DNA of 62,504 bases, filler included. It is 4 parts of 4 records of this genome, joined end to end, with 100 filler letters (N's around TTAATTAATTAA, not from the genome) between each part and the next. Parts side by side here need not be neighbours in the genome. Positions count along the whole stretch, not along the records: positions 22,217 to 39,924 come from SRR31156797_2117; 3 more parts are not named here. The stretch is one strand, 5' to 3'. The notes beneath the pieces were generated by a model, which worked only from the letters and a program-made list of their open reading frames with translations, was not told the origin of the DNA and did not search any database. Numbering within the stretch: the stretch's first letter is position 1; each line of letters opens with the position of its first letter. The position numbers were made by a program, and so were the translations under genes. Shown in pieces: positions 20,959-40,024 of this stretch.

Positions 20959-22116
20959 AAACGGTAAAGATCCCGGCATAGGTTTCAGACCAGGGAAGAC
21001 CACCACCGGGATGAATGCTCTGCTGGGTGACCCAAAAAAGGCTATGATTAAACTGGCACTGCCAATGATGCTTGGTATGTCGGTTCAGACCCTGTATAAT
21101 CTCGTGGACACTTTCTGGGTCTCGGGTCTTGGTGCAGATCCACTTGCAGCCGTAGGGTTTGTTTTCCCGTTCTTTTTTGTGATCATTGCGCTCTCAAATG
21201 GTCTTGGTGTGGGCGCCGGTTCCGCCATATCCAGAAGACTTGGTTCCGGAGATAAAGTGGGTGCCGATAATGTTGCAGTCCATAGTATGATCCTGATGCT
21301 GTTGCTGGCGGCAGCTTTCACAATTCCTCTTTACATATTTGCCGAGCCTATTTTCGTACTAATTGGTGCAGGTAAGACTGCTGGCATGGCAACTGCCTAT
21401 GGTCGCATTATCTTTGGTGGCAGTATTCTTTTGTTTTTCACCAATGTCGCAAATGCCATCCTTAGAAGTGAGGGAGATACCAAAAGAGCTATGAATGCAC
21501 TGATATTCGGTTCTGTTCTGAATATCATTCTTGACCCGATTTTTATCTATCATCTTGACATGGGTGTTTCAGGTGCTGCATGGGCTACTGTATTGTCAAT
21601 GGGTGTGACCTCAGTTATGATGGCCAGCTGGTTGTTCTTTAAGAAAGATACTTACCTGGCCTTTGATTTCAAGGATTTCATGTTTGGAACAGATATTCTC
21701 AGGGACATCTTCAAGGTAGGAATTCCTGCTGCAGTGCAGCAGACATCTATGGCATTGATGATGCTTGTGATGAATATTATTATAATAGCTGCTAGTGATA
21801 CAGATGGTGTGGCTGTTTACACTGTTGGATGGCGTGTTGTCACCATTGCAGTTGCACCTCTGATCGGTGTTTCAACGGCAGTGGTAACTATGGCAGGTTT
21901 CGCATATGGTGAGGGTTCATATGACAAAGTATCCTTCTCCCACATATATTCCATGAAGGTTGGTGTTCTCGTAGAGGCTGGCATTGCTATTCTGACCTTC
22001 GTCTTTGCTCCACAGATAGCTGCAGTATTCACACTTTCGGAAAGTGCAGCTCACATCACAGATGACCTTATAGTTTTCCTCAGGATCATTTGTATATTCT
22101 ACCCTATGGTCTCACT
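20948..22116 (+). CDS. MATE family efflux transporter (truncated by contig end)
   Basis: LALPMMLGM, YNLVDTFWVSGLG and LNIILDPIFIY...GVSGAAWAT. Confidence 0.93.
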
Positions 22117-22216
22117 NNNNNNNNNNNNNNNNNNNNNNNNNNNNNNNNNNNNNNNNNNNNTTAATTAATTAANNNNNNNNNNNNNNNNNNNNNNNNNNNN
22201 NNNNNNNNNNNNNNNN
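22117..22216. other. Artificial contig spacer (44N-TTAATTAATTAA-44N)
   Basis: Identical 100-bp structure occurs three times; the linker has stops in all six frames. Confidence 0.98.
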
Positions 22217-22489
22217 CGATGCCCTCTGCTGTTCCGCTATTGAATCGCGCTGCCGGGCAAAGTAGTTATCGGCCCGGTATTCAATGGGTGTGCCGTCATA
22301 ATACCCGAATATAAGTCTGTTGTTGCTGGTGGTCAGACTTCCGATTGCCGGAGCTCCAATAAAGGTAACGGTGATTAGAACAAGTATGACAATACTTCCT
22401 ATGTACATACCTCTATTCTTGGAATGCTTTTTTTCTTTCTGCTTCTCATCAATAAGGTGAAGGTTGTTTTTGTTGCTCTTAGATGCCAT
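22217..22489 (-). CDS. N-terminal fragment of a SurA-N/PpiD-like membrane-anchored chaperone (spirochaete type)
   Basis: Basic N-terminus, one TM helix (YIGSIVILVLITVTFIG), then LIFGYYDGTPIEY; cut by the gap. Confidence 0.55.
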
Positions 22490-22686
22490 GGATAATCCTT
22501 TTGCACTGAATAAGGTCACCGGAAAATGCTCAGCGGAGACCTTTAATTGCCCAACTTTATCATGAGTTGAGGGGAGTGTCAAAGGGGTTCTCAGCCGGTT
22601 TTTAAAGGCTTCGTTTATTGGAGATTTCTCGTGAAAATCTGAAATTCAGAGGCTGAAAAAATTTTGAAAAATAATTTACAACATAG

Positions 22687-22715
22687 TTGACAATAATTTT
22701 TAAACAGTATATCTT
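22687..22715 (+). promoter_or_regulatory. Sigma70-type promoter of tRNA-Asp
   Basis: TTGACA-17 bp-TATCTT, 12 bp before the tRNA. Confidence 0.75.
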
Positions 22716-22727
22716 CATCATCACAAA

Positions 22728-22801
22728 GGGGGCGTGGCGAAGCTGGTTATCGCACCGGCCTGTCAAGCCGGGGACCGCGGGTTCGAGTCCCGTCGCTCCC
22801 G
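22728..22801 (+). tRNA. tRNA-Asp (GTC)
   Basis: Acceptor GGGGGCG/CGCTCCC, anticodon arm CCGGC-CTGTCAA-GCCGG, T-loop GTTCGAG; CCA not encoded. Confidence 0.95.
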
Positions 22802-22837
22802 AAGTCCCGGAAGACTTGTTCTTTCGGGACTTTTTTT
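22802..22837 (+). terminator. Intrinsic terminator after tRNA-Asp
   Basis: AAGTCCCGGAAG...CTTTCGGGACTT followed by a T-run. Confidence 0.7.
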
Positions 22838-22870
22838 ATAATATTGAAACGGGTAGTGATACCTGTTTTA

Positions 22871-22943
22871 CGGGCTGTAGCGCAGGGGCTAGCGCGCGCC
22901 GTTCGGGACGGTGAGGCCGGAGGTTCAAATCCTCTCAGCCCGA
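22871..22943 (+). tRNA. tRNA-Pro (CGG)
   Basis: Acceptor CGGGCTG/CAGCCCG-A, anticodon arm CGCCG-TTCGGGA-CGGTG, T-loop GTTCAAA. Confidence 0.93.
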
Positions 22944-23345
22944 TTACTCTTTTCAGTTTGCAAATCAACTTGCAGCTTTTTATTGTAAATCATAACTTAT
23001 ATACGCATATAGAGGATTTGAACCGGAACAGCGGCTTCGAATACTTGGAGAAGCAAATGCACAGGACGTGCATTTAGCTGTGTAGGCGGCCTGAATGGAG
23101 TAAGCAGGATGCTAACGACTGGAAGGCAAATCCTCTCAGCCCGATTAACCCATTCTCTTTGAGTTGCAACTTGCAGCTCTCAATAAGCATTTCAAAACTT
23201 TAAAAGCAAAAGAGGATTTGAACTGGAACGGCGGCGTCGAATACTTGGAGACGTAGATGCACAGGACGTGCATCTAGCTATGGAAGAGGGCTTGGAAGGA
23301 GACGGCACGACGCCGTCGACAGGAAAGCAAATCCTCTCAGCCCGA
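22926..23345 (+). repeat. tRNA-Pro-linked ~201-bp tandem repeat (two units) bounded by three copies of the tRNA 3' end CAAATCCTCTCAGCCCGA
   Basis: 18-mer at 22926, 23127 and 23328. The units share AGAGGATTTGAAC, TCGAATACTTGGAGA and ATGCACAGGACGTGCAT. Confidence 0.9.
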
Positions 23346-23769
23346 ATACTCTTTTTTTTAAATTAAAGATAAAGACTGATTTTAAATAGAAATATACACA
23401 TCTTAATTTAAGAAGTAGGAACCGGTCTAATCGCTATCAGCCTCTCGATTTTTTGATTTTTAAATCTATTAATCAAGATTTTTTTAGAGAACTTTGTAAA
23501 CTGACTTATGCTCAATCGCATATATAATGATAAATGAATGTATAAAATTTAATAAGTTTAAAAAATCTGCGATAAAAAAACACATTGCAGAGATAATTTC
23601 TGGCTTTAGATATTTAAATGCATATGATGTAAAAAAATAAATATTTCATGCAATTTGGTGTGCTTAAATTGACTCATAAAAAATAATCAACTATTACCTC
23701 TTGCCGGTTCTTGGATGTCATGTTATGTTCTTAAATCTGTAAAATATAAGTAAACAAGGAATGTTATAT

Positions 23770-24525
23770 ATGAAGAAAGGTTCTCTTTTAATAGCTATTG
23801 TCTGTTTATCATTGAATGCCTATGCTGCTGATACTCAGGTCTTGAATGTTTCCGACGGTGTTGTACAGATTGAAGGGAATCTGGAAGTAAATGGAAATAT
23901 TGACGCGGAAGGTCTTATATCCGACATCATGGGTTTGGTTATTCCGACGGGTACCATCATGCCTTACGCAGGAGCTTCTGCTCCGGATGGTTGGAAGATC
24001 TGCGATGGTTCAGAACTGAATCGTATTGAAGATAAAAAATTATACAATGTTATCGGAACCTTATATGGCAGCGGTAATGACGTGGATACCTTCAACATTC
24101 CCGATCTTCAGGGCGTTTTTCTGAGAGGGGCCGGACAAAACACCACCATGAAGAAGGCCAATGACGAGTTCTATGACGGGGGAACTGTCGGGCAGAGGAA
24201 TAACGATATGTTTCAGGATCATAAACATGAGATTGATCATGATCACCCTTCAGTACGAACTTCAACCAATGGAAACCATAGCCACGGAATTCATCCGGTA
24301 ATGGCTCACTCAGGTGGCGGCCCTGATGGAAATGGTAAAAATGGTTCCGGTGCTGTTGTTAGCAGTACTGCTCCTGCTGGAAATCATAACCATACAGTTA
24401 ATCTGCCCAATCTTGAAGCGGATTCATCAGATGCATCCGTCGCAACGGAGGATGACGGCACCCCCAGGAACGGCGATGAAACCGCTCCCGCCAGTGTCTC
24501 CGTCAACTACATAATCAAATTGTAA
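23770..24525 (+). CDS. Secreted phage tail-collar domain (fibre-like) protein
   Basis: Signal peptide MKKGSLLIAIVCLSLNAYA; collar motif IPTGTIMPYAG..APDGWKICDG...FNIPDLQGVFLRG; H-x-H repeats; C-terminal ETAPASVSVNYIIKL. Alternative start at 23761. Confidence 0.85.
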   Translation: MKKGSLLIAIVCLSLNAYAADTQVLNVSDGVVQIEGNLEVNGNIDAEGLISDIMGLVIPTGTIMPYAGASAPDGWKICDGSELNRIEDKKLYNVIGTLYGSGNDVDTFNIPDLQGVFLRGAGQNTTMKKANDEFYDGGTVGQRNNDMFQDHKHEIDHDHPSVRTSTNGNHSHGIHPVMAHSGGGPDGNGKNGSGAVVSSTAPAGNHNHTVNLPNLEADSSDASVATEDDGTPRNGDETAPASVSVNYIIKL

Positions 24526-24621: not shown

Positions 24622-25692
24622 ATGAAAAAAACCGGACTCTACGTTCTTTGTACAGCACTTGCTCTATCATTCTTCGCATGCTCCAATCCCTCTGGAACAT
24701 CATCTTCTGACGATCTGGAATACGACGAATCTCAGCTGAGGGCGCCCAGCTCAGTATCCGCTTCGTTTTCAGATAACACAATCCGCGTCGTATGGTCCGA
24801 GGTGTCCGCTGCCGAAGAGTACAAGGTCTATCGTAAGGAAGATGTCGGCTCGTTCCAGTTTGTAGAGTCCACAAGCTCATTGGTCTTCGGAGATTCTGCT
24901 TACTCCAGGGGCAGCACCGTTCAGTATGCGGTCACATCGGTGTCGGAGGGGATGGAATCCCCTCTTTCGACAGCCTCTAATAGTCTGAGCGAATGGGTGC
25001 GGGATATTGAGGTCTCCACCATGGAGCACAGCAATAAGATAAGCCTCAGCTGGAGCGGGCAGGATGAGGCGGATGAGTATATCGTTTACAGGGCCCCTTC
25101 CAAGACCTCCGGCTCCGTTGAAATCGCCCGTTTTTCAAGCGGCGATAAACTGGTGGGGTATGACGACAGCTCAGCCGATATCGCCGTGGATACGCCCTAT
25201 TACTATCAGGTCCGCTGGAAAAAGGGGGAGGTCGAATACGGTTCCACCAGTCCCCTGTATCTGGGGCTCTTCTCTACGACCGTTGATTTGGGCGAGCCTG
25301 AGAATGATGATATTAAAACCCTAAGCGGGGACAGTTATGTGGAGATCCCTTCCCAGCCTCCCATCCTCTACTCCATAGGCGACAAGGTCGGCGGTGTGGA
25401 GTCTGATGTGGATTGGTACAAGTACGAGGCGAGAAAGGGCGATGCCGTTACCGTAACGGTGAAAAAGCCCGCCGTCTTCGATGACGGGGAGCTGTTTATT
25501 CAGTTCAGCTACGATAACGCTCTGTCCACTCCCGTCGCCATAAGCGGTAGTGTTCACGAAGAGATATACTCGATTCCCAGCGAGGGCAGTCCCGGAGAGA
25601 ATGCCTCGCTGTTCTTTAAGATTTATCCTGTAACCGGTACGGCGGAAACCCTGATCGGTTCTTACTCCGTATCGATCGGCAATAGCCTCTAG
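24622..25692 (+). CDS. Lipoprotein with two fibronectin type III-like domains and a C-terminal beta domain
   Basis: Lipobox LALSFFA-C; APSSVSAS...VVWSEV..AEEYKVYR...YAVTSV..G.ES; a second LSWS...YIVYR...YYYQV; DVDWYKY. Confidence 0.8.
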   Translation: MKKTGLYVLCTALALSFFACSNPSGTSSSDDLEYDESQLRAPSSVSASFSDNTIRVVWSEVSAAEEYKVYRKEDVGSFQFVESTSSLVFGDSAYSRGSTVQYAVTSVSEGMESPLSTASNSLSEWVRDIEVSTMEHSNKISLSWSGQDEADEYIVYRAPSKTSGSVEIARFSSGDKLVGYDDSSADIAVDTPYYYQVRWKKGEVEYGSTSPLYLGLFSTTVDLGEPENDDIKTLSGDSYVEIPSQPPILYSIGDKVGGVESDVDWYKYEARKGDAVTVTVKKPAVFDDGELFIQFSYDNALSTPVAISGSVHEEIYSIPSEGSPGENASLFFKIYPVTGTAETLIGSYSVSIGNSL

Positions 25693-25709: not shown

Positions 25710-28700
25710 ATGCGCAAGTCCAAATCCCTAATCTTTTTTTCTGCTCTGATCCTGCTGTCCGCATCTTTGTTTGCGAAACCCGTGGTTACGGCTCAGCTGG
25801 AGGATATATCCTATGACGTCGGCGATATCATAAGCCTGAAGATCAATGTCGATGACAATCCCGGTATCAAGGGATTGTTTTTCGATCTGAGCTATGACAG
25901 TCGTAAGTTGTCGTTCATGGATCTTACCGAGGGCTTGCTGCTTCACCGTGTCCAACAGGAAGACAAGCTGATGTATGCCCACACCGACGGACAGACGGCG
26001 AAGAGCCTGGGCGGACATGTCATCGTCTCCTGGTTTCTCCAGGAGAAGGGCGATAAGACCCGGGAAGAGGGCACCTTCGCGCTGCTCAGGTTCAGGGTAA
26101 AGGAACGGGGGTTGTCAAGCGATACCTTCCGGTTCCGCTTTCAGGAGAGGAATATCTTTGATGCGCATAATAAGATACTGAGCTCCTCAATCTGGAATGA
26201 TTCGGATGAATTCCTTCTGTACCGGACCGGCGAGAGCCGATTCGTCGAGATCGTGACTCCCAGGAACAACGGCGTGGTGTCTTCCGATAGGATTGAAGTG
26301 GATGCCCTTTACAGCGGAGGAACCGGCTTTACGGTAGTCGCCGCGAATAAGACGACCGGTTACCAGTCCCAGCCTCTGAATGCTTCTTCCGGCGCTCTGG
26401 AAGATGAGATCGTCCCTTTGACGGAAGGGGCGAACCGGATATGCCTGACCCTGTTTGATGAGAACGGGGCGAGAACGGCTGATGATGAGATCAATGTGAT
26501 CAAATCGGCGGATGACCGCTTTATCAGAATCCTCCAGCCCACGGATCACGCCCTCGTGAACACCAACATGGTGAAGGTCATGGTCTCATCCGCTTTCGCG
26601 GGGCCCGAGGTGAACGGCATGGCCATGGAGGCTCTGGGGCAGAGGGATCCGGATAATGATGAAAACAACCTGTATTTCAGAAACTTCTATCTCAAGGAAG
26701 GATTCAACACCATAACGGCCGTCGTTGAGAACGATGGGGCCATCTATGAGTCTGAGGTGGATATCTACTATCACCGGGATGATTCGGTGTTCCGCTTCGT
26801 TTCTCCCGGTTCCGATGCGGTGGTTAAGATCTCTGATGATGCGAAAATCATGGTAAAGGGCGAGATCAGCTCCAAGATCGATGACGATTACAGAGAAAAT
26901 ACCGTCCATGTCAGCGCCGTCTATTATCCCAGAAACAAGACGAAGAGGAACCTTGTGCTTGCGGATATGGTGCAGGCGTCCATCAGCGAAACCGACATCG
27001 TTTCCAGGGAGTCAAGCTCCGCGTACATGTTCGTACTGGATGAGCCCATCCCTCTGGGGATGCTGGAGTCGGGAACCATCGAGCTGACGGCCTATAAGAA
27101 CAAGCGGGGCAGCTCTGCGGAGCAGGAGGTCCACAGGTCCTTCCATGTGGACAATAACAGGCTGTACATCGATCTGGTACAGCCCAATATTCAGACCAGC
27201 GATATCCTGGATACGAATGATAAGATCAAATATTTTAACAACGGATCCGATCCGGAAGGGTCGGCCATCTCCTTGAACAGTGAGGGCGCCTTCGTATTGG
27301 AGTCTCTGGACACCCGTGCCGACTCGGTGCCCCTGTTTGCCGATGAGACGGTGGACGATCTGATCAGGACGATCAACGGAGACCTGTACGCCCTTGTCAA
27401 TGACGCGAACAGGCTGAAGGTATACAGAAAAGCTTTCGGGGAACAGAACTGGGCCAAGGTTCTGGAGCAGGGGAATCTCCACGGCTACGATCTCTGTGAG
27501 ACCGACCTCGGTATCCTGCTGGGCGTATCCAACCTCTACAGCAATGAGAACTCGGGGCTCTATCTTATCCAGGGGAACAAGCTGGTCAATGTCTCCATCG
27601 GCGAACCTATTCCCCATGTGCAGTTCATCCATGAAGAGGACGGTCTGGTAAGCCTGTACGGCAACGATTACTCCTATCTCTACACCTTCAACGTTTTCTC
27701 TCTCGAGGAATCGGAAGGAGGCTTGAGAGCGGGTATCACGGACAAATACCTGTTCGATACCAACTATTTTATCAGGGATTTCATCCTGAGCTCCGGGGGG
27801 AAAACCGCAGTCATTCAAACCTCCGAGAACGATGTGCGTTTCTTCGCTCAGACAGGCAGCGGGGCGTTCAAGCCTGTTATTTTCAATGGGGGGCAGATAA
27901 CGGATCTGAAGTTCCGCAAGGTGATTGCCGGAGAGTATGAAGACGGGGATTACAATGCCTACCTTTTGATCAGAGAAGGAGAGGACGGCGCCTATGTCGT
28001 TATGGAGCATCGGGAAAACCAGAGGTTCATCCTCAATAAAAACCTGTCTCTGCCCTTCCTTGAGGAGGAAAGCCTCACGGGCGTGGACTTCTTTGGGAAC
28101 CTCTTTTCCTTCGTCAGCTACGATTCCGGCGAGGGCGTCTACAGGCTGAGGCGGAGACAGATTCTGTTCGATAGCCTCTACGGGGATGCCGAAGCCGTTG
28201 ATTTCAAGCCGGCCGGCGGTGACGGAGCCATCTCAAACGACGGGTTAACCCTTTTTCAGGCAGACCACTCCCTCCTTTATGCCGACTACGGCAATGGCGA
28301 AGAGGGACTGTACTCATTGTATACCGAGTTCCCGGCCAAAGGCGATCTGGCGTTTCAATACAACAACGCGGATATGGAGGGGCTCGTCTCCTTCAGCTTC
28401 GAGGTGGAGAGCTCATGGGTGGAGAGCGATCTGCTGAAGCTGGGATTCGCCATCGGCAGGGGATCTGTTTTTGATTTCGGCAGCGGCGAATCCTCTGGCG
28501 ATTCATACGATCTGCTTTCCATAAAGAAACTCCTCGAAGAGGATAAGTCGGAGTACAAGGTCTACCGGGAGATCAGTGAGGCCAATAGCGACTTCGAACT
28601 GATAACCATTGAATTCGACAGGATCCAACGGGATGGAAGAGCCCTCTTCCTCGGCCTCGAGTTCCGACCGGTCGACGGGCTTTCTCCGGAGATCCACAGC

Positions 28701-31700
28701 CTTTCGATCCGCAAAAAGGTTCCCGTCAAGCTGCCCCGCAGCGGCAGCGATGAGATCATTCTTCCCATTCACGGTTACATCTACGATCCTACGGTCAAAA
28801 CGGTAAAGGTCGGGACAAACGGCGAGACGCCGGTTGTCAACGGGACCTTCTCCGATCAATACCGGATCGAAACGGTCAAGGACGAGGTGGACATCACCCT
28901 CCAATGCACGAACGGGGCCTTTGAAACGGCTGAGCTGTCTTTTACGGTCCAGTTGTTCGATTCGGTCAATTCCATAAGCGATATCAGCCTCAGGAAGAGG
29001 AGCGGGGATCCGCTTGCCGCGGCGGAAGGATACAAGTACGAAACCGATGAAGAGGAGCTCCTGGTCTCAGGTCGTTACTCGGGTCTCATTGGAGCCGTTA
29101 CGGGTTATGAGATCAGGCATGCCGAGAGCTATAAGGTTCTCCGCTCCGGCGTATTCGATAACGACGCCTCCATCGCAGACGGAATGGAGAACGGTGAGTT
29201 TTCCGATGAGACGATCCGGCTCTTTCCCGACGAGCAGTTCCTGAATCTGTATGTGGAGAATCCCGGGGGATTGAGGACGATCTATAATCTCCCCGGATTC
29301 GGCAAAAGGCCCTTGGTTAATTTTCACTTGCCCATGGACTCTCAGGAGATACTCCTGAGCAACTATGAAATCCGGGAGGCATCCCTGGCTGATGAGTACC
29401 AGTACGACGGAATCGCTTTTGACAGGGAGCTGGCGCTCACGGTTTACGAGGATCCCTTCAGCAACGTTTTCAAAAAGGATATATCCATACGCGGACAGGT
29501 TCTGAGTAACTACTCCTTTCAGGATCTTAAGGTCAAAAGCTACGACCCCGAGGTCCGTTTCGAAGGAGGAGCCGACGAGATCCTGATACCGGTGGACCCT
29601 CAGGGGCGATTCGAGGTGGATCTGAAGGTGACCCTGCCGGAAGAGATGGAGTCTGATTCCTTCAGACTGGCCTTCGTCCCTACGGCGCCCTTTTTGCAGG
29701 AGCTGAGCCGGGGGCTGACCCTGGCCGCCAGAAAGTCTTTCGCCGGAACCAATGTCGTTCCCGTTTTCGACGGTCTGATGGACGGACCCTCCTGGAGCGA
29801 AAACGAAGTCAACAGTATGAAGAAGCCCGTTCGGGTGCGCATCGACCGCTTCATCCCCCCCGAGGGTACGGGCATGAACCTGATCGTCAACTATGAAACC
29901 GAGGTATCCGGAATCCTTAAGGAAGTGAATCCGGGTTCCGGAATCTACAAGCTTATGAACGGTTATGACGAGGTTTCGCTGAAGGGAGTGAAGCTGGGAA
30001 CCAACAGGCTGCAGTGGTGGATCGTATACGATCATCAGACCGTTTCATCGTCGGCCACTGAGAAGACGGGGATGGACGACTTCCTCTTTACCTTGAGCGG
30101 CGACACATCCTATGCCCCGACGACGATCGATTTCGATGTCAAGATGCAGGAGTACTATGATGAGAATACCCTGCCGTCTTTGAAACTGAATAAGGATGCC
30201 AATACCTATCTTGAAGTATCGCTCAATGAAAAGACCGTTATCAGGGATGAGAAGAGCACGGAGATCGGCCCTCTGGCCCTTTCCGAGTTCGGCCTTATGG
30301 AAGGGAAGAACCGTCTCGCTGTGAACTCACGGTCTTTGAACGGTTCCATGGAGAGCTGGGACTATGAGTTCCTCTATGACAGTGTGGATCCTCTCGCCCA
30401 GATAACGGGATACAGTTACAACGCGGACAGGAGTAAACTGACGAGCCTGAAGGCGCTTGTGACAGACAGCAACCTGGAAGACGCGGTGATCCTCTATACG
30501 ACGGGAGGGAATGAGAGCGAGTATAATGCGGATCCCGTCTACTCCTATCTGGGCGAAGGGCGTTTCGAGGTTTACTGGGATCTAAGCGCCAAGAATCTGA
30601 ATCCCTCTCCTGCGGAGCCTATCAGGATAAAGGCGGTGGATCACAGCGCTTCGGCGGGCTATTCGGCGTATTTCAACGGCCTTTCCGCTTCCATCACCGA
30701 TCCTCCCGAGGTTACGGCGACTCCCATCGACATGACCGAGCTTCAGAAGTATGCCAGCGTCCCCTTCTTTGAAGGAGAGCCGGGGGACGCCCCCTTTGAA
30801 ACAGCCGGCAGGATGAAATTCTACTCTTCCTCTATCGGGATGGAAAACAAAACCGTGGAGGGGGACTATAGGATTATCCGTCCCGATACGGTCCGGCTGA
30901 GCGCTGAGAACAGCCCCTTCACCGTCGGAAGCGAGAACATGGACGGAAACCTTGTTGTTAAGGGGGGAGAAGGAGTCTCCTGTTACCCCGGATTTTCCGT
31001 AAAAGCGGGAAGCACCCTCAAGGTCTTCACCGGTTTGAATCCCGCTGAAAACAAGGTCGCCGCCCCCCTGGAATTCAAGCACGCAGGGGCGCTCGATTCC
31101 ATGAGCATCGCCTTCTATTACCGTTACGAGCAGGAATCCTTCTATGACCGGGACGGCGATTACAAGAGGGTCCTCACATTATTTGATTATGAGTCAAGCG
31201 ACAAAGAGTCGAGGGAAAGCATCTTTCTGGCAACCAGGAATCTGGCAGACGACGGAAGCCGAGTGGGCCTTTACCTTATGAGGGAGATGGGCTCCCGCGG
31301 AAATACGGAAGATCCCTATGATTTGAGCTATACGGAGATCATCGACGGAAGCTCCTTCGAGATCGACCGCAACGGCGTTAAGCAGGGTTGGAATCTGATC
31401 CTGCTTTCCGTGGACAGTCTGACGAAGTCTTTTTCCCTGTCCATGAATTCCATCGCCCCTGTAACGGCCGAGTACTATGATTCTTACATATCGACGGACA
31501 TCGTTCCATCGAATAATATTTTCGAATTTATCCTTTCGGGGCAGGAGACCCATTATTTCGGCGCCCAGAACGGACGGGAGAACGGCCACTATTCCATAGC
31601 CCAACCTTTTTACGCCAACCGCTTGATCACCATCGACGAGGTCCCCGAGCTGGAGAGTACCCTGCCGGCGGACTTTGTGGATCTGGATTCGGATATGAGG

Positions 31701-34700
31701 CGCCGTTACGATTTCGATAGCCCGGGCGAGGGCGTGGGCAGTGAGTATTACCAGCTCAGAACGAACAGTGCGCTCTACTATTCTTCGGTTGAGAATGTGG
31801 ATTACAGCGATCCGGGCAAGGGGGCCATGCTGGCTTCTTCCGAGCATAAGAACTACCTCAAAGTCGACGGCTCGGGAAGAATGATCTTTGCCGACTCTCT
31901 GGAACCGGCCCTCTTCGATGTGATCGTCGACGGAGGCGGGGATGTCTTTTCGCTCCGCCCCACCAGCGCATCGGGCAAGTCGGGACGCTACTTCTTCAGT
32001 AAGAAGCAGGGTAACCATGGACTGACCAACAACAAGTTTTTCTCAGTATTCGGTACGGTACTGGACGATGGAACGGATGACGAAAACGATGCGCCCGAGG
32101 CCTGGATGGTTCTGCTGATCGACGGCAGGGAGCAGAGAACTCCCCTCAGGACAGGGGATTTTCACCTGGTCTTCGATAACAAGGCCGTGAAGACTCCCAG
32201 CTCTGTAAAGCTCTACATCGAGACTTCGGCAGACATTGTCCTAGCTAAGGATTTCATGTTCACAGAGGGGGACTATGTCCTTCCCGAGGAAGCTCTGAAC
32301 GGGCTCAGCCCGGTCCGGGCGGAAACACAGTACGCCTTCAGCACCCAGGGCACCGTGGACCTTTGGTACAAGCCCATCAATATCAATGCCGAGGGCTTCG
32401 CCAGCTACGGCGCTACGATATTCGACAGCGAGTACATCACCCTCTACACAAAGCTGGATGACGGGGTCGCCCGTTTCTGCGCCAGGTTGAAAGGAGACAG
32501 CGAGCCTAAGGAGCTGGAGAGCGATTTCCCCGTTACCAGCGGATGGCATAACCTCCAGCTTTCCTACAGCGTGAATGACGATATCGCCTACTTCTTCGTA
32601 GACGGCGTGATGGCCTCTGTGATAAACGACTCGCTTCCGAAGTCGGCCTCCATGAAGAGCTACGTACCCTCTGGGGACAATATGGTTTTCGGCGGCTCCC
32701 TGGCTGATCCCGAAGACAATGCGGATGGTTTCATAGACTCGGTTTTCATAAGCCGCATCTTCAGAAACGCCCTGTACGAAGACAAGTCCCCCGTACGGTT
32801 CCGTTATTACCAGAATACGGACGACTTCTCCCAGAATCAGTCTACCCTGGACGCGGGCCTCGAGGTCTCCACCCGGTTCAGCGGAGACGCTGAGGACGTG
32901 GTCTACTCACTCTCCTCCCGGGACGGAAAGTACCGGCTCTTCAATGACAAGGCTTCGGCGACAGATCACGGCTTTGAGATCGATAAGCTGCCCTCGGCCG
33001 CCTATAACTTCTATAACTCCATGAGGATCAATGGGTACCGCTTCGATAAGCGCTTCTCCTTTATCAAGAACAACAGGCCCAACTTTTCGGTTTCCGAAGC
33101 CACTCCTCTGATCGTGAACGGCATCAGCGGAGATATCAAATTCGGTGTTCGTTACGACGAGTCCTACCTCCTTCAGAGCAACGACGGAATCTATTCGGGA
33201 TTCGCCCTGCAGATCCGGGGCAACCGGGAGACTCCCTTCGATAAGACGATCTATGTGTACGAGGATCCTCTCAAGCCGGATAGCTGGCTGTATGAGATGG
33301 AGGACGGCGCGGCCGATCCCGAGCCAGTCGATATTGTGAACAATGAGTTCCGCATTATTTTCGATCAGATCATATCCGTGGAGGATATTGAATGGGAGCT
33401 GCGTTCCTTCTACTTCGACAATGCCTTCGATAAGGCCAGTTACAACTTTGACCGGATCTCTCCCGACCGGGAGGGCTCCATCCCCATCGCCACTTTGACG
33501 GTGGAGAAGCCGGTCAAAATAATTGGAAGGACCAAAGAGGAAATAGAATACAAACTTGTCGTAGAGATAGGAAACGATAACGGCCGGGTCGACGACCTCC
33601 TCCTTGAAAAACTCAGTATCTCCAACCGGGTCGTCCTGCAGGATCCCGACAATCCTCAGGTGCTGGAAACCAGCTTCCCCCTCGAGGGGACCCGGATCGA
33701 GCTCTTCTATGACGATTTTCTGCCCGCGTTCGGATTCTACAGCTGCACCGTTTCCCTCTGCTATGAGGGAGAGAGCGTCAGCTCCAGGGATCTGAACCTC
33801 ACGTGGAGGAGTACGGAAGACAGCCACGGAGAGGTGGAGAATATCGAGAAGAAGCTGAGCATCACCGACTTCGCGCTCCTTTACCTGGATAAGGAAACCT
33901 CAGACGGGGCCATCGAAAGCAAGGCCAAGCTCTACCTCGAATACGATCAGAGCGGCATTGAGAACCGGCTGTACTACGATCTTCAGGTATACGAAGTCTT
34001 GAACGGAGTCGATTACAGCGATTTCTACAGCTGCTCCGCAAAACAGCTGGACGGCAAGGGATTCCAGATCATCAATCAGATCCCCGTCCCCGAAAACGAT
34101 TCTCTGGTCATCCTCCAGCTTTACGAGCTGGGCGCGGACAATGCCCAGGAGCTTCTCAGGAAGGCCGAGCTAAGGATCAGCAACGAATCCGCCGCACCCG
34201 TTGTCAGCATCACCAATACGGTGGACAACAGGATCTCCTATAACAACGTCCTTTTCACCTGGAAGGGTTACTATGAAGGCGCCTACAATGCGGACGTTCA
34301 GTTCTCCTACAACTTCGACCGCCAGGGATGGACTTCCTGGAAGAAGGACAGACGCTCTCTAGAGCTCTTCGATCTCGAAGAGGGCTATCATGTCTTCGAG
34401 GTGAAGGGTTCTTATAATGAGGTGGAATCGGTGGTTCAGTCGGTGCCCTTCTTTGTGGATGTGAAGAAGCCTGAGTTCGATGAGGCCGTCTTTACGGTCG
34501 TTCCCGTATACGATACGGAAGGGATTATCAAATCCGTTAATATCAGCGGCGGTGCCGGGGCCGTGACAGACAGCTCTCTGAGGACCCTGCTGATCGACGG
34601 GGAAAGGGTCGCCTTCCGTGAAGACGGCAGCTTCCCCTCTGTCAATGTGGAGATCCGCAAGGACGGGGAAAACGCCATCGTCTGCGTCGCCTATGACGAT

Positions 34701-37700
34701 GTGGGCAACCTGAAAGAGCACAATCTGTATGTGGACAACGGCATCACGGAGCTTCTGTTTCCCAGCCTGAAGGAGAACCTGCGCTACGCCCCGGCGGTTA
34801 TCGTCGGAAAGCTGAATGCGGAGGTTCTGTCCGAGGTGGAGATCTACCTCTGCGATCCCGAGGCGGGCGTACGCGATTCATCGGATCTGTCTGGCTGGAA
34901 GAAGGCCGTGATCAACAGCGACCGGACCTTCTTCGTAGAGGATGTCTATATCAACCCCGGTACGGCGGGCAGAACCAACGACACGGGCCTCACCCTGGCT
35001 GTGAAGACGCCCTCGGGACTGGTCTTCAAGAAAGACTTCACCGTCAGCGCCAATGAGCTGATCCTTCCCATCGAGATGGAATTCTCATCCCATGCGGTGG
35101 AAGGGGAGAACAAGCCCACCGAGGTGACCATCGACTGTATGGCCCATGTGGAGAACATCTCCTCCTGGAGCATCGACTTCAACGGCGACGGCATCTACGA
35201 TGAAATCCTCACCGTCGACAATCCCGCCCTGGCCCGGAGCCAGAGCTGGACCCACAGCTATTCCAGCCTGGGGCAGATCGCCCCCCGGGTGCGGGTCATC
35301 ACCACCGACGGGAACTACTTCTCCGTATCCGACAGGATCATCATCCACGAGCAGATCACCGAATCCAGCAATGTGATGGTAGACGACCCCGTGTCCCTCT
35401 CTTCCGTAAGGCTTGAGGACGGCAGCGACCGGGTTTACGTACTGGCCGGATCCGGCGGCAATCACCGGATCGAGGTCTTTGAGATCGGCCGGAACGACAG
35501 CTATATATCGGATAAGCTCTACTCCGTCTCTCTCGAGGGAATGGGCATAGACAACCCCGTGCAGGTCCTGGCCCTGGATAAGGAGCACCTCTATCTGGCT
35601 GCCAACCGGGCGGGACAGGGCTATGTGTACCTCCTGAAGGCGAACGAGTTTGGCAACTTCGTCAAACGGGAGGAGCACGGCTTCTCCCTCCCCAATCCCA
35701 TACGTGAGATGGATGCCGACGGGAACCATCTCTACCTGACATCCGGCGATGCCAACCACCTGACGAGGGTCGCCCTGGATCGGAAGCTGACGCAGATCGA
35801 TACTGTCGAGACCGTTGATATCAAGAACGGCTACCTCAAGGAGCCGGGAGCCAATCTGGCGCTGGCCCGTCAGCGGGACGCCCTGATCATCGCCGACTAC
35901 GAGGAGCACCGGATGCTCTCCCTGAATCCCGATTTCTCCGTGGCCGCCTACTATGACGACTTCGGCAGCGGCGAAAGGGAGTTCCAGAGACCCGCCCTCG
36001 TGGAGGCCGTTGAGAACAGAATCTTCGTCTTCGACGAGATCAGGAAGGACATCCAGGTCTTCGACTCCGAATTCCGTTCGGTCTGCAGCCTGCGCTACAG
36101 GGACGGCGCCGACAACAACTATATGGAAAAGGCCGCCATGGACGACCTGCGGGGACTCTCGGTGGTAACCAGAAACGAGGGCAACAGGCTCTACTACTAC
36201 GCCCTGATGATCAGCGGCAGCACCGAGAAACTGTCCATGATCCGCCTGCCCCAGTGGGAGGAGCTGCGGGCCAGCGTCCGCAACAACAAGATCGTCTTCC
36301 TCAAGGACAGGGAGATCTTCACGGCCAAGCCCGACGGCAGCGACCTGACGCGGATACTCTCCACCGACAGCCTGCCCCGTATCGAGGGCACCCTGGACTA
36401 TCCGGCCATCTCTCCCGACGGCAGGACCATCGTCTTCACCTCTCGGGTCGAGCTCTACGACGGTAACGGCCGCAGGGACGGAACGGACGACCAGTATGCC
36501 TACGACAACCTCTATATGGTGGATGTCACCGGCGAGAACCTGACCAGGATTCCCCTGGGCATGATCAACAACTTCGAGATCGAGAGGCCTGTCTTCAGCT
36601 CCAACGGCGACAGGATCATCTGTTCCGCCAAGGAAGCGGGAGGCCACTGGCAGATCTATGTCTATAACCTGGAGACCGGAGGGATCAGCAAGCTCTTCCA
36701 GTCGGATGAGAACGCCAGGTTCCCCTATTACTCTCCCGACGACCGCTATGTGGTCTTCACCACAGACTACGACGGGGACGAAGAGGTCGTGATCGCGGAT
36801 GTGGAGAATGTGAATATGCGTGTGGCCGTGAGCGCCAACAACTGCCGGGATTCCTATCCCGTCTGGAGCACCCTTTATCCCTTCGAGATCGGCAACTCCG
36901 ATCTGGACATCGATTCCAAGATCGCCTTCGTCAGCGAGAGGGGATTCAAGAAGTCCGCCTACTACAGCTATGTGTCCCGGCCCTCCGAGTCGGATGTCCG
37001 CATCGTGACCAAGGCGGGCGAGGAGACCGGCGGCGATCCCGATACGGCGGCCCTGCCCATCAGCTCGACGGCGGACGAATCGGACTATCCCAGCTTCACC
37101 GGCGACGGACGCTCGGTGGTCTTCGAATACCAGAAGGACTGGGAGACCGGTCTGCTCCGCTACGACATGGACAAGGACCTGAGCAGCGTGATGAACCTTC
37201 CGGCCGAGGCGAGCAAGCCCGCGGGTATGAAGAATATGATCGTCAACTTCAAGACCGAGCATGTGAACGGCAACGACCTGATGCTCAGCTGGTCGCCCTA
37301 TACGGACAAGGACACCTTCTACACCCTCCAGTTCCGCCTGAACGACGAGGGGGCCGGTTTTGTGGAGAAGAAATTCTTCACCAGCGGCCATGCTGTTCTG
37401 AATGACCTTGAGATGGGCTCCGAGTACCTGATGAGGGTCTGCATCATCGAGAACGGGCAGGAGGCCGCCACCTCCCAGTGGAAGACGGTTCTGATGCCCG
37501 AGGTCGCCGCCCGCGCCGAGGTCGGCATCGACGGGGACAATCCCTATCTGGTCCGCCTGAAGGCCTGGAAGCCCACCGAGGATACCAAGTGGCAGTACAG
37601 CTGGATCATCGATAATCAGGAGATCGCCGTGCAGTCCACCGAAGAGTACCTCTACGAGTTCTCCACAAGCGGCACGAAGACCATCATGCTCAAGGCCTCG

Positions 37701-39924
37701 GACCTCTCCAACAGCCATACGGATGTCTCCGAGCCCATGACCGTAAAGATCGTGAGCGATATCGTTCCGTCGGTCGAGTATGTCCTGGCCGACGATTCCA
37801 GCTATGTGGAACTGAGCGCCGAGAACTCTCTGGGACAGCGCATCGACTGGGCCAACGCCCGCTGGATCGTATCCGGCCCCGGTCAGCCTCCCTTGGCGCC
37901 GGTGACCGGTTCCAAGGTCATCGTCCCTCTGGACGTGTTCAAGCATAAGGTGAATGTGAACCTGGCCCTTACCAGAATCCCCGTTAACGGCCAGTCCTCC
38001 ACGGACACCCTGGAGAAGAACATCACCCTGGACCTGGACTTCAAGGATGTGAAGCCCGTCATCACCTACGAGGTCAACGAGGCCGATCCCAGGCTTTTCA
38101 GCTTCTCGGGCTCCGATTCCATCGGAAACATCGACTGGTACAACGCCCTGTGGACCATCTACGGAGACGGTGTGGTGCTCCATCAGCAGAACGGCAAGAG
38201 CTCTGTCTCCTACCGCTTTGCGGAGCTGGGCAGCGACACGACCTATACGGTCTCCCTGACGGTACCCAGGATCAGCGACGGCAAGTCCGAGACCACCACC
38301 CAGATCGTGGCGGTGGAGCCGGCGGCCCTGGAGCCGGTGATCGACTATGAGATCATAGAACTGAAGGAAGCGGGGAAGACCGTGGGTGCCAAGGTCCTGT
38401 TCTCCTGTTCCAACTCCAAGGGAAGCAGCATAGACTTCGCCAACGCCCGCTGGTCGGTTCCCGTGGCGGGGGTCTACGGCGAGCAGCCCTCCCAGATCGG
38501 CCCCACGGCCATCTACAACCTCTTCGACACCTCCAGCAGCACCCAGGTCGAGGTCTCCCTCACCCTGATGCGCAAGGGCGGCGTGGACGCCCAGACGGTC
38601 ACCCGCCTGATCAGCATCAAGGCCGGGGACGTGACCCAGCCGGAGATCATCGTCCGGAAGAACACCGAGACCACCAGCAGCGGTCACGCCATCGTCCTGG
38701 ACGCCCTGTCCTCGACCGGTCCCAACATCGACTGGGAGAAGACCCAGTGGCTCTTCGACGGCCAGTACGCCAAGACCGGCCCCGTGGCCCGCTACGATCT
38801 GCCCTATTCGGGCGAGGAGCAGGTGGTCCGCTATGTCTGTACCCTCTACAGGCACGGGGACGAGCCCATCAGCGACCAGGGCGAGATCGTCCTGGGCAGC
38901 GACAGGATCAAGCCCCTGATCAATGTGGGCGAGAACCTGGGGAACAATGTCTTCCGCCTGACCGTGGAGAAGACCGAGGCCGCCAACGTGGACTGGAACA
39001 GGACCACCTGGTACATCTTCGACGGCAACGAGAACGTGGTGACCCTCCGGGGCTCCAACATCCTCCATACCTTCGTTCCCAAGAGCGAGGCCATGGGCTA
39101 TCCCGTGATGGTGGAGATGTTCTTCCTCAACGACGACACACCCTTTGTGGGCTATAAGACGGTGGACATTGAGGGTGACGAGCTGACCCCCGTGATCACC
39201 TGGGACCTGTCTGAGGCCGATCCCACGGTGGTCCAGTTCTCTGCCCAGGACTCTTCGGGCAGCGCCATAGACTGGTCCCAGGCCAAGTGGACATTCGGCG
39301 ACTCCTCCGAGTCCCAGTACGGTCCCTCTGTGGCCCATAAGTACCCTGTGAACGGATCAGACAGAAATTACAAGGTCTCCCTGACCCTGACCAGAAAGAA
39401 CACCAACGGCTCCCAGGAATCGGCGACGGTCTACAAGACGGTAGCCATAGCCGACGACAAGATCAAACCGGTCCTGAAGGCCGAGCTCCGGGGCAACGGC
39501 TATCTGGTCCTCACATCAGAAGACTCCGAAGGCCGTGGCCTCCTCCTGGACAGAACCTCCTGGCTCTTTGAAGGGGAGGGGGATAGTTCGAGCAGTAGTG
39601 TTTCGACTCAGACAGGAACTATAGAGAATTCAACTCACAATGGGAGAACGAGTGTGACTGTAGAAGCTGCTGCTGGAGACTTATTCCCGAAAGTTTCAAC
39701 ATCTAGTACTCTAGATTACGGTTATTCGAATAGCACTACTTCCTATAATGACTATAAAAACAGTAATGAGTCCTTCTCTACATCCAATTCTCACATCGGA
39801 GCTACCTGCCGTCGCTATGTGGGAGACCAAAAGCGTATCGTAGTCACAATGTTTGTCTATCGAATGGACTCCGATGGAGGAATGACCGGAGAATCCATCA
39901 CAGTCAACATCGACTGCGAAGAAG
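25710..39924 (+). CDS. Giant (>4,738 aa, 3'-truncated) secreted multidomain protein: cohesin-like, Ig-like, LamG-like, PKD, NHL-like and TolB/PD40-like propellers, FN3, PKD-like repeats
   Basis: One uninterrupted ORF with a signal peptide. Cohesin-like LFFDLSYDSRKLSF...GTFALLRFRVK; LamG-like GTVDLWYKP...GWHNLQLSY...FFVDG...GFID; PD40-like PAISPDGRTIVF, PVFSSNGD, PYYSPDD, PSFTGDG. Domain calls are by motif recognition only. Confidence 0.85.
37770..39924 (+). repeat. Seven divergent ~90-100-aa PKD-like repeats at the C-terminus of the giant protein
   Basis: Recurring S.G..IDW..A.W motif near 37818, 38109, 38406, 38703, 38964, 39243 and (degenerate) 39516. Confidence 0.75.
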
Positions 39925-40024
39925 NNNNNNNNNNNNNNNNNNNNNNNNNNNNNNNNNNNNNNNNNNNNTTAATTAATTAANNNNNNNNNNNNNNNNNNNN
40001 NNNNNNNNNNNNNNNNNNNNNNNN
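39925..40024. other. Artificial contig spacer
   Basis: 44N-TTAATTAATTAA-44N. Confidence 0.98.

Follow-up and report, generated by a model that had tools for sequence, protein, structure and literature searches.

Structured modules that end in copies of the neighboring tRNA 3′ end form a repeat family in spirochaetes resembling the tRNA-linked repeats of Escherichia coli

The closest described counterparts of the element reported here are the tRNA-linked repeats (TLRs) of Escherichia coli, which, according to an excerpt of PMC8144298 (citing Rudd 1999), lie immediately 3′ of a tRNA or rRNA gene and belong to its operon, with the same orientation. The excerpt dates their first description to 1978, counts 22 of them at ten loci with 1 to 5 per locus, states that all share their 3′ 18 to 19 bp with the upstream tRNA or rRNA gene, and describes them as being without known function (PMC8144298). 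Three members linked to 5S rRNA genes (RrA, RrB, and RrF of rrnA, rrnB, and rrnD) are products of terminator read-through that bind both Hfq and CsrA in vitro, according to the same excerpt (PMC8144298). We analyzed a 62,504-nucleotide stretch of DNA (here called the window) in which two tandem units follow a tRNA-Pro gene, each unit ending in a copy of the tRNA 3′ end. That these units are structured modules of the TLR class is, in our assessment, very likely. The best explanation overall, which we hold tentatively, is that they are copies of a spirochaete TLR family of the same kind as the E. coli TLR/RtT RNAs; on our best reading of the sequences, the product would be a TLR-type small RNA that is co-transcribed with tRNAs and possibly titrates CsrA.

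The 18-nt 3′ end of the tRNA-Pro gene, CAAATCCTCTCAGCCCGA, has exactly three + strand copies in the 62.5-kb window, at 22926, 23127, and 23328, spaced by 201 and 201 bp; 100 dinucleotide-preserving shuffles contained no match, even with 2 mismatches. The second and third copies, both 18/18 identical to the tRNA end, close two units that align over 201/201 nt with one gap column (85% identity in an 82-nt core block and 77% over the last 60 nt). An initial annotation of this DNA had described two homologous units carrying the tRNA end, three stems with compensatory changes, and 7 to 8 GGA triplets per core, and all of these were recovered at the same places. Hairpin P2a changes from GCTTC/GAAGC (23034-23054) in unit 1 to GCGTC/GACGT (23234-23254) in unit 2, P2b from AAATGCAC-AGGAC-GTGCATTT (23055-23075) to AGATGCAC-AGGAC-GTGCATCT (23255-23275), and P3 from GTAAGC-AGGAT-GCTAAC (23100-23116) to GACGGC-ACGAC-GCCGTC (23301-23317), while 7 and 8 GGA triplets were counted by eye in cores 1 and 2. 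The RNA folds of the two units are more stable than those of shuffles (z = -2.8 for unit 1 and -4.3 for unit 2). That annotation had missed the segment AGAGGATTTGAAC(C) that opens each core (23011, 23211), which is the reverse complement of the tRNA T-arm and pairs with the 3′ direct copy into a 10-bp closing helix (P1). Tandem Repeats Finder reported no repeat in the window at a min_score of 30, since the units are too diverged. A coding origin was rejected, as the sole open reading frame (ORF) of at least 50 aa in the region (22844-23077) begins before tRNA-Pro and runs across the tRNA. The parts of the locus are as follows, with a and a′ denoting direct and inverted copies of the tRNA end and R1 and R2 the first covariance model of the module and a second one with a hand-curated structure.

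22687-22715, + strand: promoter-like site TTGACA-17-TATCTT upstream of tRNA-Asp, the sole one found upstream of same-strand tRNAs by a consensus scan that is weak as evidence (4 sites against 3.8 expected in shuffles)
22728-22801, + strand: tRNA-Asp(GTC), called by ARAGORN and Rfam; no module follows it
22801-22833, + strand: terminator-like hairpin and T-run 3′ of tRNA-Asp (-18.9 kcal/mol, z -5.5)
22871-22943, + strand: tRNA-Pro(CGG), called by ARAGORN and Rfam; master copy a is formed by the final 18 nt (22926-22943)
22944-23010, + strand: spacer 1, AT-rich, with a weak hairpin and then a T-run; counterpart of the terminator (T) in GC-rich relatives
23011-23144, + strand: module 1 (TLR-type RNA; R1 131.5 bits; R2 95.2 bits, E 3e-17), with a′ at 23011-23024, a at 23127-23144, P1 formed by 23011-23020 and 23127-23136, P2a at 23034-23054, P2b at 23055-23075 (loop AGGAC), and P3 at 23100-23116 (loop AGGAT)
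23145-23210, + strand: spacer 2, with an 8-bp hairpin GAGTTGCA-ACT-TGCAGCTC and no T-run
23211-23345, + strand: module 2 (R1 129.6 bits; R2 76.7 bits, E 2e-13), with a′ at 23211-23223, a at 23328-23345, P2a at 23234-23254, P2b at 23255-23275 (loop AGGAC), and P3 at 23301-23317 (loop ACGAC, no GGA)
23346-23360, + strand: ATACTCTTTTTTTT, which is like the start of spacer 1 (TTACTCTTTT) and gives a T-run after the last module

Relatives of the window units were found by scanning genome contigs for an inverted tRNA end, a gap, and a direct tRNA end. The scan returned 7 loci, all from spirochaetes or Treponema metagenome-assembled genomes, with units that follow tRNA-Asp-tRNA-Pro; tandem arrangements and positions at contig ends were frequent. 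With model R1, each of 5 genomes proved to have 5 to 12 copies, located 3′ of a variety of tRNAs and of transfer-messenger RNA (tmRNA); these copies have a core common to all and ends that are the inverted and direct 3′ end of their own upstream tRNA. A covariance-model search of spirochaetes, as the initial annotation had advised, was carried out with R2 and matched a module of ~140 nt in 107 of 151 genomes sampled from one spirochaete family, with at least ~570 matches in total and from 1 to at least 21 scored matches per genome (at most 21 candidates were scored in each). A phylum-wide sample yielded matches in 11 of 151 genomes. The complete 4.06-Mb genome G051 carries 20 copies, including an array of 4, which compares with 2 tandem units in the window and 5 within a tRNA-Ser cluster at locus L045. 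No Rfam family reaches its gathering score on the units (window 22000-24500 and the relatives' loci), and a distant-homology blastn search of 22944-23345 against phage and plasmid collections gave no match. Our literature searches found nothing relevant on spirochaete tRNA-linked repeats or CsrA small RNAs (sRNAs), and among the listed papers that name RtT RNA, none concerned spirochaetes.

The association with tRNA genes was quantified in 82 copies from 58 sources. A same-strand tRNA or tmRNA lies -2 to 261 nt upstream in 66 of them (67 nt for the first module of the window, 3′ of tRNA-Pro on the same strand). Within this set, the 3′ terminus is at least 15/16 identical to the upstream tRNA end in 55 copies and the inverted 5′ terminus in 37, while each terminus reaches at least 13/16 in 61. 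The upstream tRNAs cover 16 amino-acid specificities in addition to tmRNA, so the restriction to tRNA-Pro implied by the initial annotation does not hold; its alternative of a tRNA-associated repeat is true in the sense of a multi-copy element behind many different tRNAs. Among the 16 of 82 copies with no called tRNA, 13 are at or near a contig edge, and the remaining 3 (L019, L038, and L065) lie 3′ of a strong promoter and a tRNA-like 3′ half. In genome G051, 19 of the 20 copies fall into 12 arrays that start 0 to 65 nt after a tRNA, so that 12 of 50 tRNA genes carry a module.

Several individual loci depart from the common layout. The twentieth G051 copy (L090, at G051:C1:3458300-3459400) again follows a promoter and a half-tRNA, which brings the modules with a near-consensus promoter (TTGACA-17-TATAAT) upstream in place of a tRNA to four (L019, L038, L065, and L090). 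The ~80 to 100 nt between promoter and module end in a T-arm and acceptor 3′ strand, reduced in L065 to a bare acceptor/T-arm minihelix. Neither ARAGORN nor Rfam called a tRNA in these four half-tRNAs, which are perhaps the remains of tRNA genes or else a distinct small RNA with a tRNA tail. At L024 (1103-1641), a module lies 41 nt behind a tmRNA gene and has a 3′ terminus identical to the tmRNA 3′ end (16/16); a second, partial module comes next. An extra module of ~60 nt with a common motif like ACGT.A.AATC..TTCCAC.CG is inserted between the inverted end and the core in L010 (310-512, the same locus as L004) and in the spacers of L016 and L036, and has the appearance of another repeat family nested within the modules. 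In addition, the model of the Proteobacterial sRNA sX4 (RF02223) gave sub-threshold matches in L064 and L045 (34.8 bits, E 3e-4) that span a tRNA-Ser and the start of the next module; sX4 itself may be a tRNA-linked element. These sX4 matches, and others to plastid models, overlap the tRNAs.

The consensus structure consists of P1 (a′ paired with a), a 2-bp P1b, P2 enclosing P2a and P2b, and P4 enclosing the long hairpin P3, and the single-sequence folds of most copies agree with it. The copies a′ and a run from the T-loop to the discriminator of the upstream tRNA and close the module as P1. In the window only the T-stem part is paired and the acceptor 3′ strand is left as a short tail; in many relatives the inverted copy spans the whole 17 to 21 nt, which produces an acceptor and T-stem mimic. 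In an 82-row alignment that was itself fitted to the model, 85.7% of the cells at paired positions were paired, compared with 59.4% in shuffles and 36 to 45% with slid partners, double-sided changes occurred in 46 of 49 pairs, and the covariation score of 0.582 (against 0.161) was reached by none of 500 shuffles. A structure-blind MAFFT alignment of 9 units had compensatory changes in 11 of 28 pairs. The ~100-nt core contains 33 covarying pairs outside P1. Covariation of this strength across 82 homologues bears out the earlier view that the hairpins are under structural selection. P2a and P3 also contain conserved tandem G.A/A.G pairs (130 and 147 cells), replaced by C-G in a minority, and these pairs make the fold specific to the tRNA-sense strand.

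The genomic context of the modules points to synthesis together with the tRNA. GC-rich relatives have a strong terminator hairpin between the tRNA and a′ and a near-identical hairpin after the direct copy, while modules in L064 and L045 sit between tRNAs without any terminator, in loci with spacers of 2 to 10 nt. At one G051 locus the order is promoter, tRNA-Arg, TTAG, module, TTAG, module, and that strand has no terminator. The window spacers contain weak hairpins, and no promoter or terminator was called inside the units. Copies inside terminator-less tRNA operons would be part of the tRNA transcripts, which makes the previously proposed co-transcription with the tRNA very likely on the evidence of gene order, and we consider it probable that the module is both transcribed and processed with the tRNA. 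Downstream of the window repeats, the region 23346-23760 is very AT-rich and is followed by a gene for a phage tail collar domain protein (23761-24525; Pfam E 8.5e-21), a gene whose product has a weak GH85_C match (24622-25692), and an ORF of 4756 aa (25710-39980).

The GGA-containing loops, which had been singled out in the window, proved to be a conserved feature of the family. After removal of one truncated row, 81 full-length units remained. Their P2b loop contains GGA in 74 cases, most commonly as AUGGAU, AGGAU, or AGGGAU, and their P3 loop in 63; both loops carry it in 59 units and neither in 3. The loop-closing pair is C-G in 80 of 81 cells for P2b and 74 of 80 for P3, giving CA(U)GGAUG, which we take to resemble the CsrA consensus from systematic evolution of ligands by exponential enrichment. 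Cores contain 6.1 GGA on average, compared with 4.35 in mononucleotide shuffles. No member of clan CL00106 was matched at its gathering score; the best hits were one unit on the PrrB/RsmZ model (35.6 bits, E 9e-5; gathering score, 44) and window unit 2 on the rsmX model (18.7 bits; gathering score, 56). All five genomes tested have csrA next to fliW, and the csrA gene was detected in 134 of the 151 family genomes. Together, the comparative data and the precedent of RrA, RrB, and RrF strengthen the CsrA-sponge idea, and titration of CsrA by the modules is a possibility that the loops suggest, one that we rate as somewhat doubtful.

Under the mechanism we propose, the module would be made by read-through or co-transcription from the tRNA promoter, cut out via the same 3′-end determinants as the tRNA, and accumulate as a freed small RNA. 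Its two CA(U)GGAUG loops and GGA-rich linkers would bind CsrA dimers, so that the level of free CsrA would be adjusted by FliW and, in addition, by tRNA-operon transcription, which follows growth rate. The alternating a and a′ copies would act as quasi-palindromes, and gene conversion or template switching would correct them to the sequence of the selected tRNA gene; maintenance at the DNA level is, we infer, the simplest account of the match between the module ends and the neighboring tRNA.

A number of observations weigh against this reading as a whole or against parts of it. The covariation counts come from an alignment fitted to the model, and G.U pairs are rare outside P1 (43 G.U and 19 A.C among 2608 cells). 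In P1 they are no commoner than A.C (44 versus 54), so selection at the RNA level does not explain the complementarity of P1, and the a′/a match appears to be renewed at the DNA level rather than kept by selection for RNA pairing. The run index contained no RNA run with the element, and RNA contigs of run X14 held tRNA-like parts only, which is uninformative. The Rfam model of RtT (RF00391) gave no match on the spirochaete units (window 22000-24500 and 5 loci at E up to 10; 7 loci at E up to 1), so that homology to RtT is unproven. Some loops read ACGAU in place of AGGAU, with the P3 loop of window unit 2 counted among them. The gene csrA was not found in 12 of the 107 genomes with modules and 5 of the 44 without, a co-occurrence that is uninformative because the assemblies are incomplete. 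We know of no sRNA sponge in FliW-type systems, and FliW, an established protein antagonist of CsrA in the excerpted literature, is present in the tested genomes. Finally, the E. coli tRNA-linked TLRs are without GGA loops, in contrast to the spirochaete modules, and all 19 of them score <0.01 in a CsrB/C predictor according to the excerpt (PMC8144298); CsrA titration therefore cannot be a class-wide function.

The main rival explanation is that the module is mainly a selfish DNA repeat, which moves from one tRNA locus to another and builds up arrays through recombination at the short tRNA-end copies. These copies would act like att sites or as substrates of unequal crossing-over, and the fold would be there to propagate the repeat, by way of a single-stranded DNA or RNA stage, and not to serve the host. 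Unit order in close strains bears on this. Contigs of the DNA runs X2 and X3 (coral metagenomes from two studies) match the window at ~99% and show the junctions tRNA-unit 2, unit 2-unit 1, and unit 1-downstream flank, each inside the 18- to 21-nt repeat. Close strains thus carry the window units in swapped order. Such a swap could come about by excision and re-insertion through recombination between the repeated ends, or by the loss of different units from an originally longer array, and it leaves a selfish-repeat component in play, whether as a rival explanation or as a partner. A selfish repeat would also account for the dispersed copies in variable number (1 to at least 21 per genome), the many copies at contig ends expected of assembly-breaking repeats, the patchy spread (44 of 151 family genomes without a match), the P1 mismatches without G.U bias, and termini that always copy the local tRNA and so call for a DNA-level copying process. 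However, no recombinase, reverse transcriptase, or other gene travels with the modules, there is no ORF within the units, and the phage and plasmid collections hold no match. The orientation relative to the tRNA is the same in 66 of 66 copies with a same-strand upstream tRNA, a count that took in same-strand tRNAs only, and in 19 of the 20 G051 copies. The strand-specific G.A motifs suit a transcript better than duplex DNA, the loops are conserved while the stems covary, as is typical of ligand-binding RNA, and the swapped order could also arise by ordinary unequal crossing-over in a longer ancestral array. On balance, we regard a mainly selfish repeat as rather unlikely. Two further contigs show other arrangements: one from X2 has a different P2b hairpin after ~23056, so that a third unit variant exists, and in one from X4 the tRNA end is joined to 23275 with 139 other letters between.

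Less probable still, though by no means negligible, is that the module acts solely in cis, in the processing or termination of tRNA-operon transcripts, with a spare tRNA end and its antisense that would buffer 3′ maturation, as a decoy for 3′ exo- or endonucleases, an insulator between tRNAs, or a pairing partner for read-through transcripts. The direct copy does stop where the mature tRNA stops and matches more closely than the inverted copy it pairs with (≥15/16 in 55 versus 37 of 66 copies), modules of GC-rich relatives lie between duplicated terminators, Rfam files RtT as "Cis-reg," and the repeated 3′ end of RrB has been proposed, according to the excerpt, as an RNase E recognition element in E. 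coli (PMC8144298). Against this, the module is absent behind most tRNA genes of G051 (12 of 50 carry one) and behind the tRNA-Asp of the window, so that tRNA maturation does not need it, and a ~100-nt core with its covarying pairs and GGA loops far exceeds the needs of a processing signal. The repeated ends could in principle be attL/attR-type scars of integrative elements in tRNA-Pro that were later deleted. Integrases commonly enter tRNA genes at the stretch between T-loop and 3′ end, which is duplicated in the process, and a phage tail collar domain protein is encoded among the downstream genes. The 183 bp between the repeats, however, form a module that is conserved behind 16 specificities and tmRNA in more than 100 genomes and hold no credible gene; an inverted end copy is present, which att scars lack; the 62.5-kb window has no further copy of the 18-mer; and no integrase gene is associated. 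The spread through 107 of 151 genomes and the tRNA-link counts refute an att-scar origin for practical purposes, and we give it next to no credence. A retron, group II intron, or bridge-RNA type element was rejected by reasoning only, given the small size and the lack of an associated gene.

If the reading as a TLR-type, CsrA-titrating RNA is correct, the FliW-type Csr system would gain a second, growth-rate-coupled sponge made from tRNA operons, and spirochaetes, which are thought to control CsrA by FliW only, may also use RNA sponges. The CA(U)GGAUG loops make this hypothesis directly testable, and hundreds of natural variants are at hand for working out the mechanism. A wider proposal, which we put forward as speculative and consider improbable as a whole, is that TLR-type modules are cross-phylum sRNAs of stable-RNA operons (in Proteobacteria, Spirochaetota, and perhaps more) whose ends are self-rewritten by palindrome-guided DNA correction, with those of the Treponemataceae possibly having become the missing RNA antagonists of CsrA. 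On the practical side, Rfam has no entry for the family, which fragments assemblies at tRNA loci and could be taken for integration scars.

Comparison with known systems places the modules nearest to the E. coli TLR/RtT RNAs. The shared layout comprises a position directly 3′ of a tRNA on the same strand, 1 to 5 tandem units, a last 18 to 19 nt equal to the 3′ end of the upstream gene, and a short inverted T-arm copy that closes the unit at its 5′ end. The E. coli units have the same terminator on either side, as do those of GC-rich relatives, whereas the window spacers form weak hairpins and some copies have no terminator. The same odd layout in a distant phylum points to a conserved role or to a general element-making mechanism at stable-RNA genes. 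In the K-12 genome, RF00391 (gathering score, 45 bits) yielded 16 RtT matches, 13 of them above the gathering score; the four units of tyrT, at 133 to 137 bits, served as the positive control. The closing helix of RtT in tyrT, GGGGAAGGAU/AUCCUUCCCC in the Rfam structure, is made of inverted and direct copies of the tRNA-Tyr end, and the proK unit reads tRNA end, terminator, GAGGAT, core, ATCCTC..., and terminator repeated; units of the tyrT, proK, and serX type follow the order a, T, a′, core, a, T. RtT and the spirochaete module also have in common a GAGC-N-GCGAG hairpin that contains tandem G.A pairs and precedes a GC-rich hairpin. When R2 was run without filters on the 2.5-kb tyrT locus, the four RtT units were the top four matches, in register and on the right strand, at scores of only 10 to 16 bits (E 0.005 to 0.08), with P1, P2a (the GAGC-N-GCGAG hairpin), and P2b aligned onto the E. 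coli units. We conclude that the architecture is the same and that homology is plausible. The direct copies differ in that those of E. coli include an encoded CCA, while the spirochaete tRNA genes are without CCA. In the TLR behind tRNA-Lys in K-12 (L087 and L088), the 5′ inverted segment GATTCGAACCTGC is antisense to the T-stem 5′ strand and T-loop and not to the 3′ end, so the part of the tRNA copied in antisense varies among TLRs. The excerpt of a mobilome preprint (10.1101/2024.07.17.603846) notes raised coverage of the tyrT region and nothing more.

The kind of element is therefore already known from E. coli and has been since 1978. The initial annotation, which treated it as potentially undescribed, had foreseen that a match to a described tRNA-linked repeat family would remove this novelty. 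What is new is the phylum and scale, the strong covariation, the full-length antisense copy in many members, and the conserved CsrA-like loops. With respect to CsrA, the nearest precedents are RrA, RrB, and RrF, which by their description are likewise TLR-class RNAs with GGA in hairpin loops, lie between two terminators, and, according to the excerpt, have been proposed to couple CsrA activity to growth-rate-dependent stable-RNA synthesis (PMC8144298). They differ in being 5S rRNA-linked and in their demonstrated CsrA binding, the likeness being one of description with the sequences uncompared; no 5S-linked copy was seen among the 20 modules of G051. The Csr/Rsm sponge sRNAs (CsrB and RsmX/Y/Z; clan CL00106) resemble the modules in having several hairpins with ANGGAN loops, extra GGA in linkers, and several gene copies per genome, whereas the modules offer two loop sites per unit, have tRNA-derived ends, occur in a FliW-using host phylum, and lie in tRNA operons rather than under a GacA/UvrY-type promoter. 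In plant mitochondrial t-elements and the mascRNA of MALAT1, a tRNA-like helix lets tRNA-processing enzymes set transcript ends; those are free-standing mimics, whereas the modules described here carry a literal and an antisense copy of the end of the neighboring tRNA.

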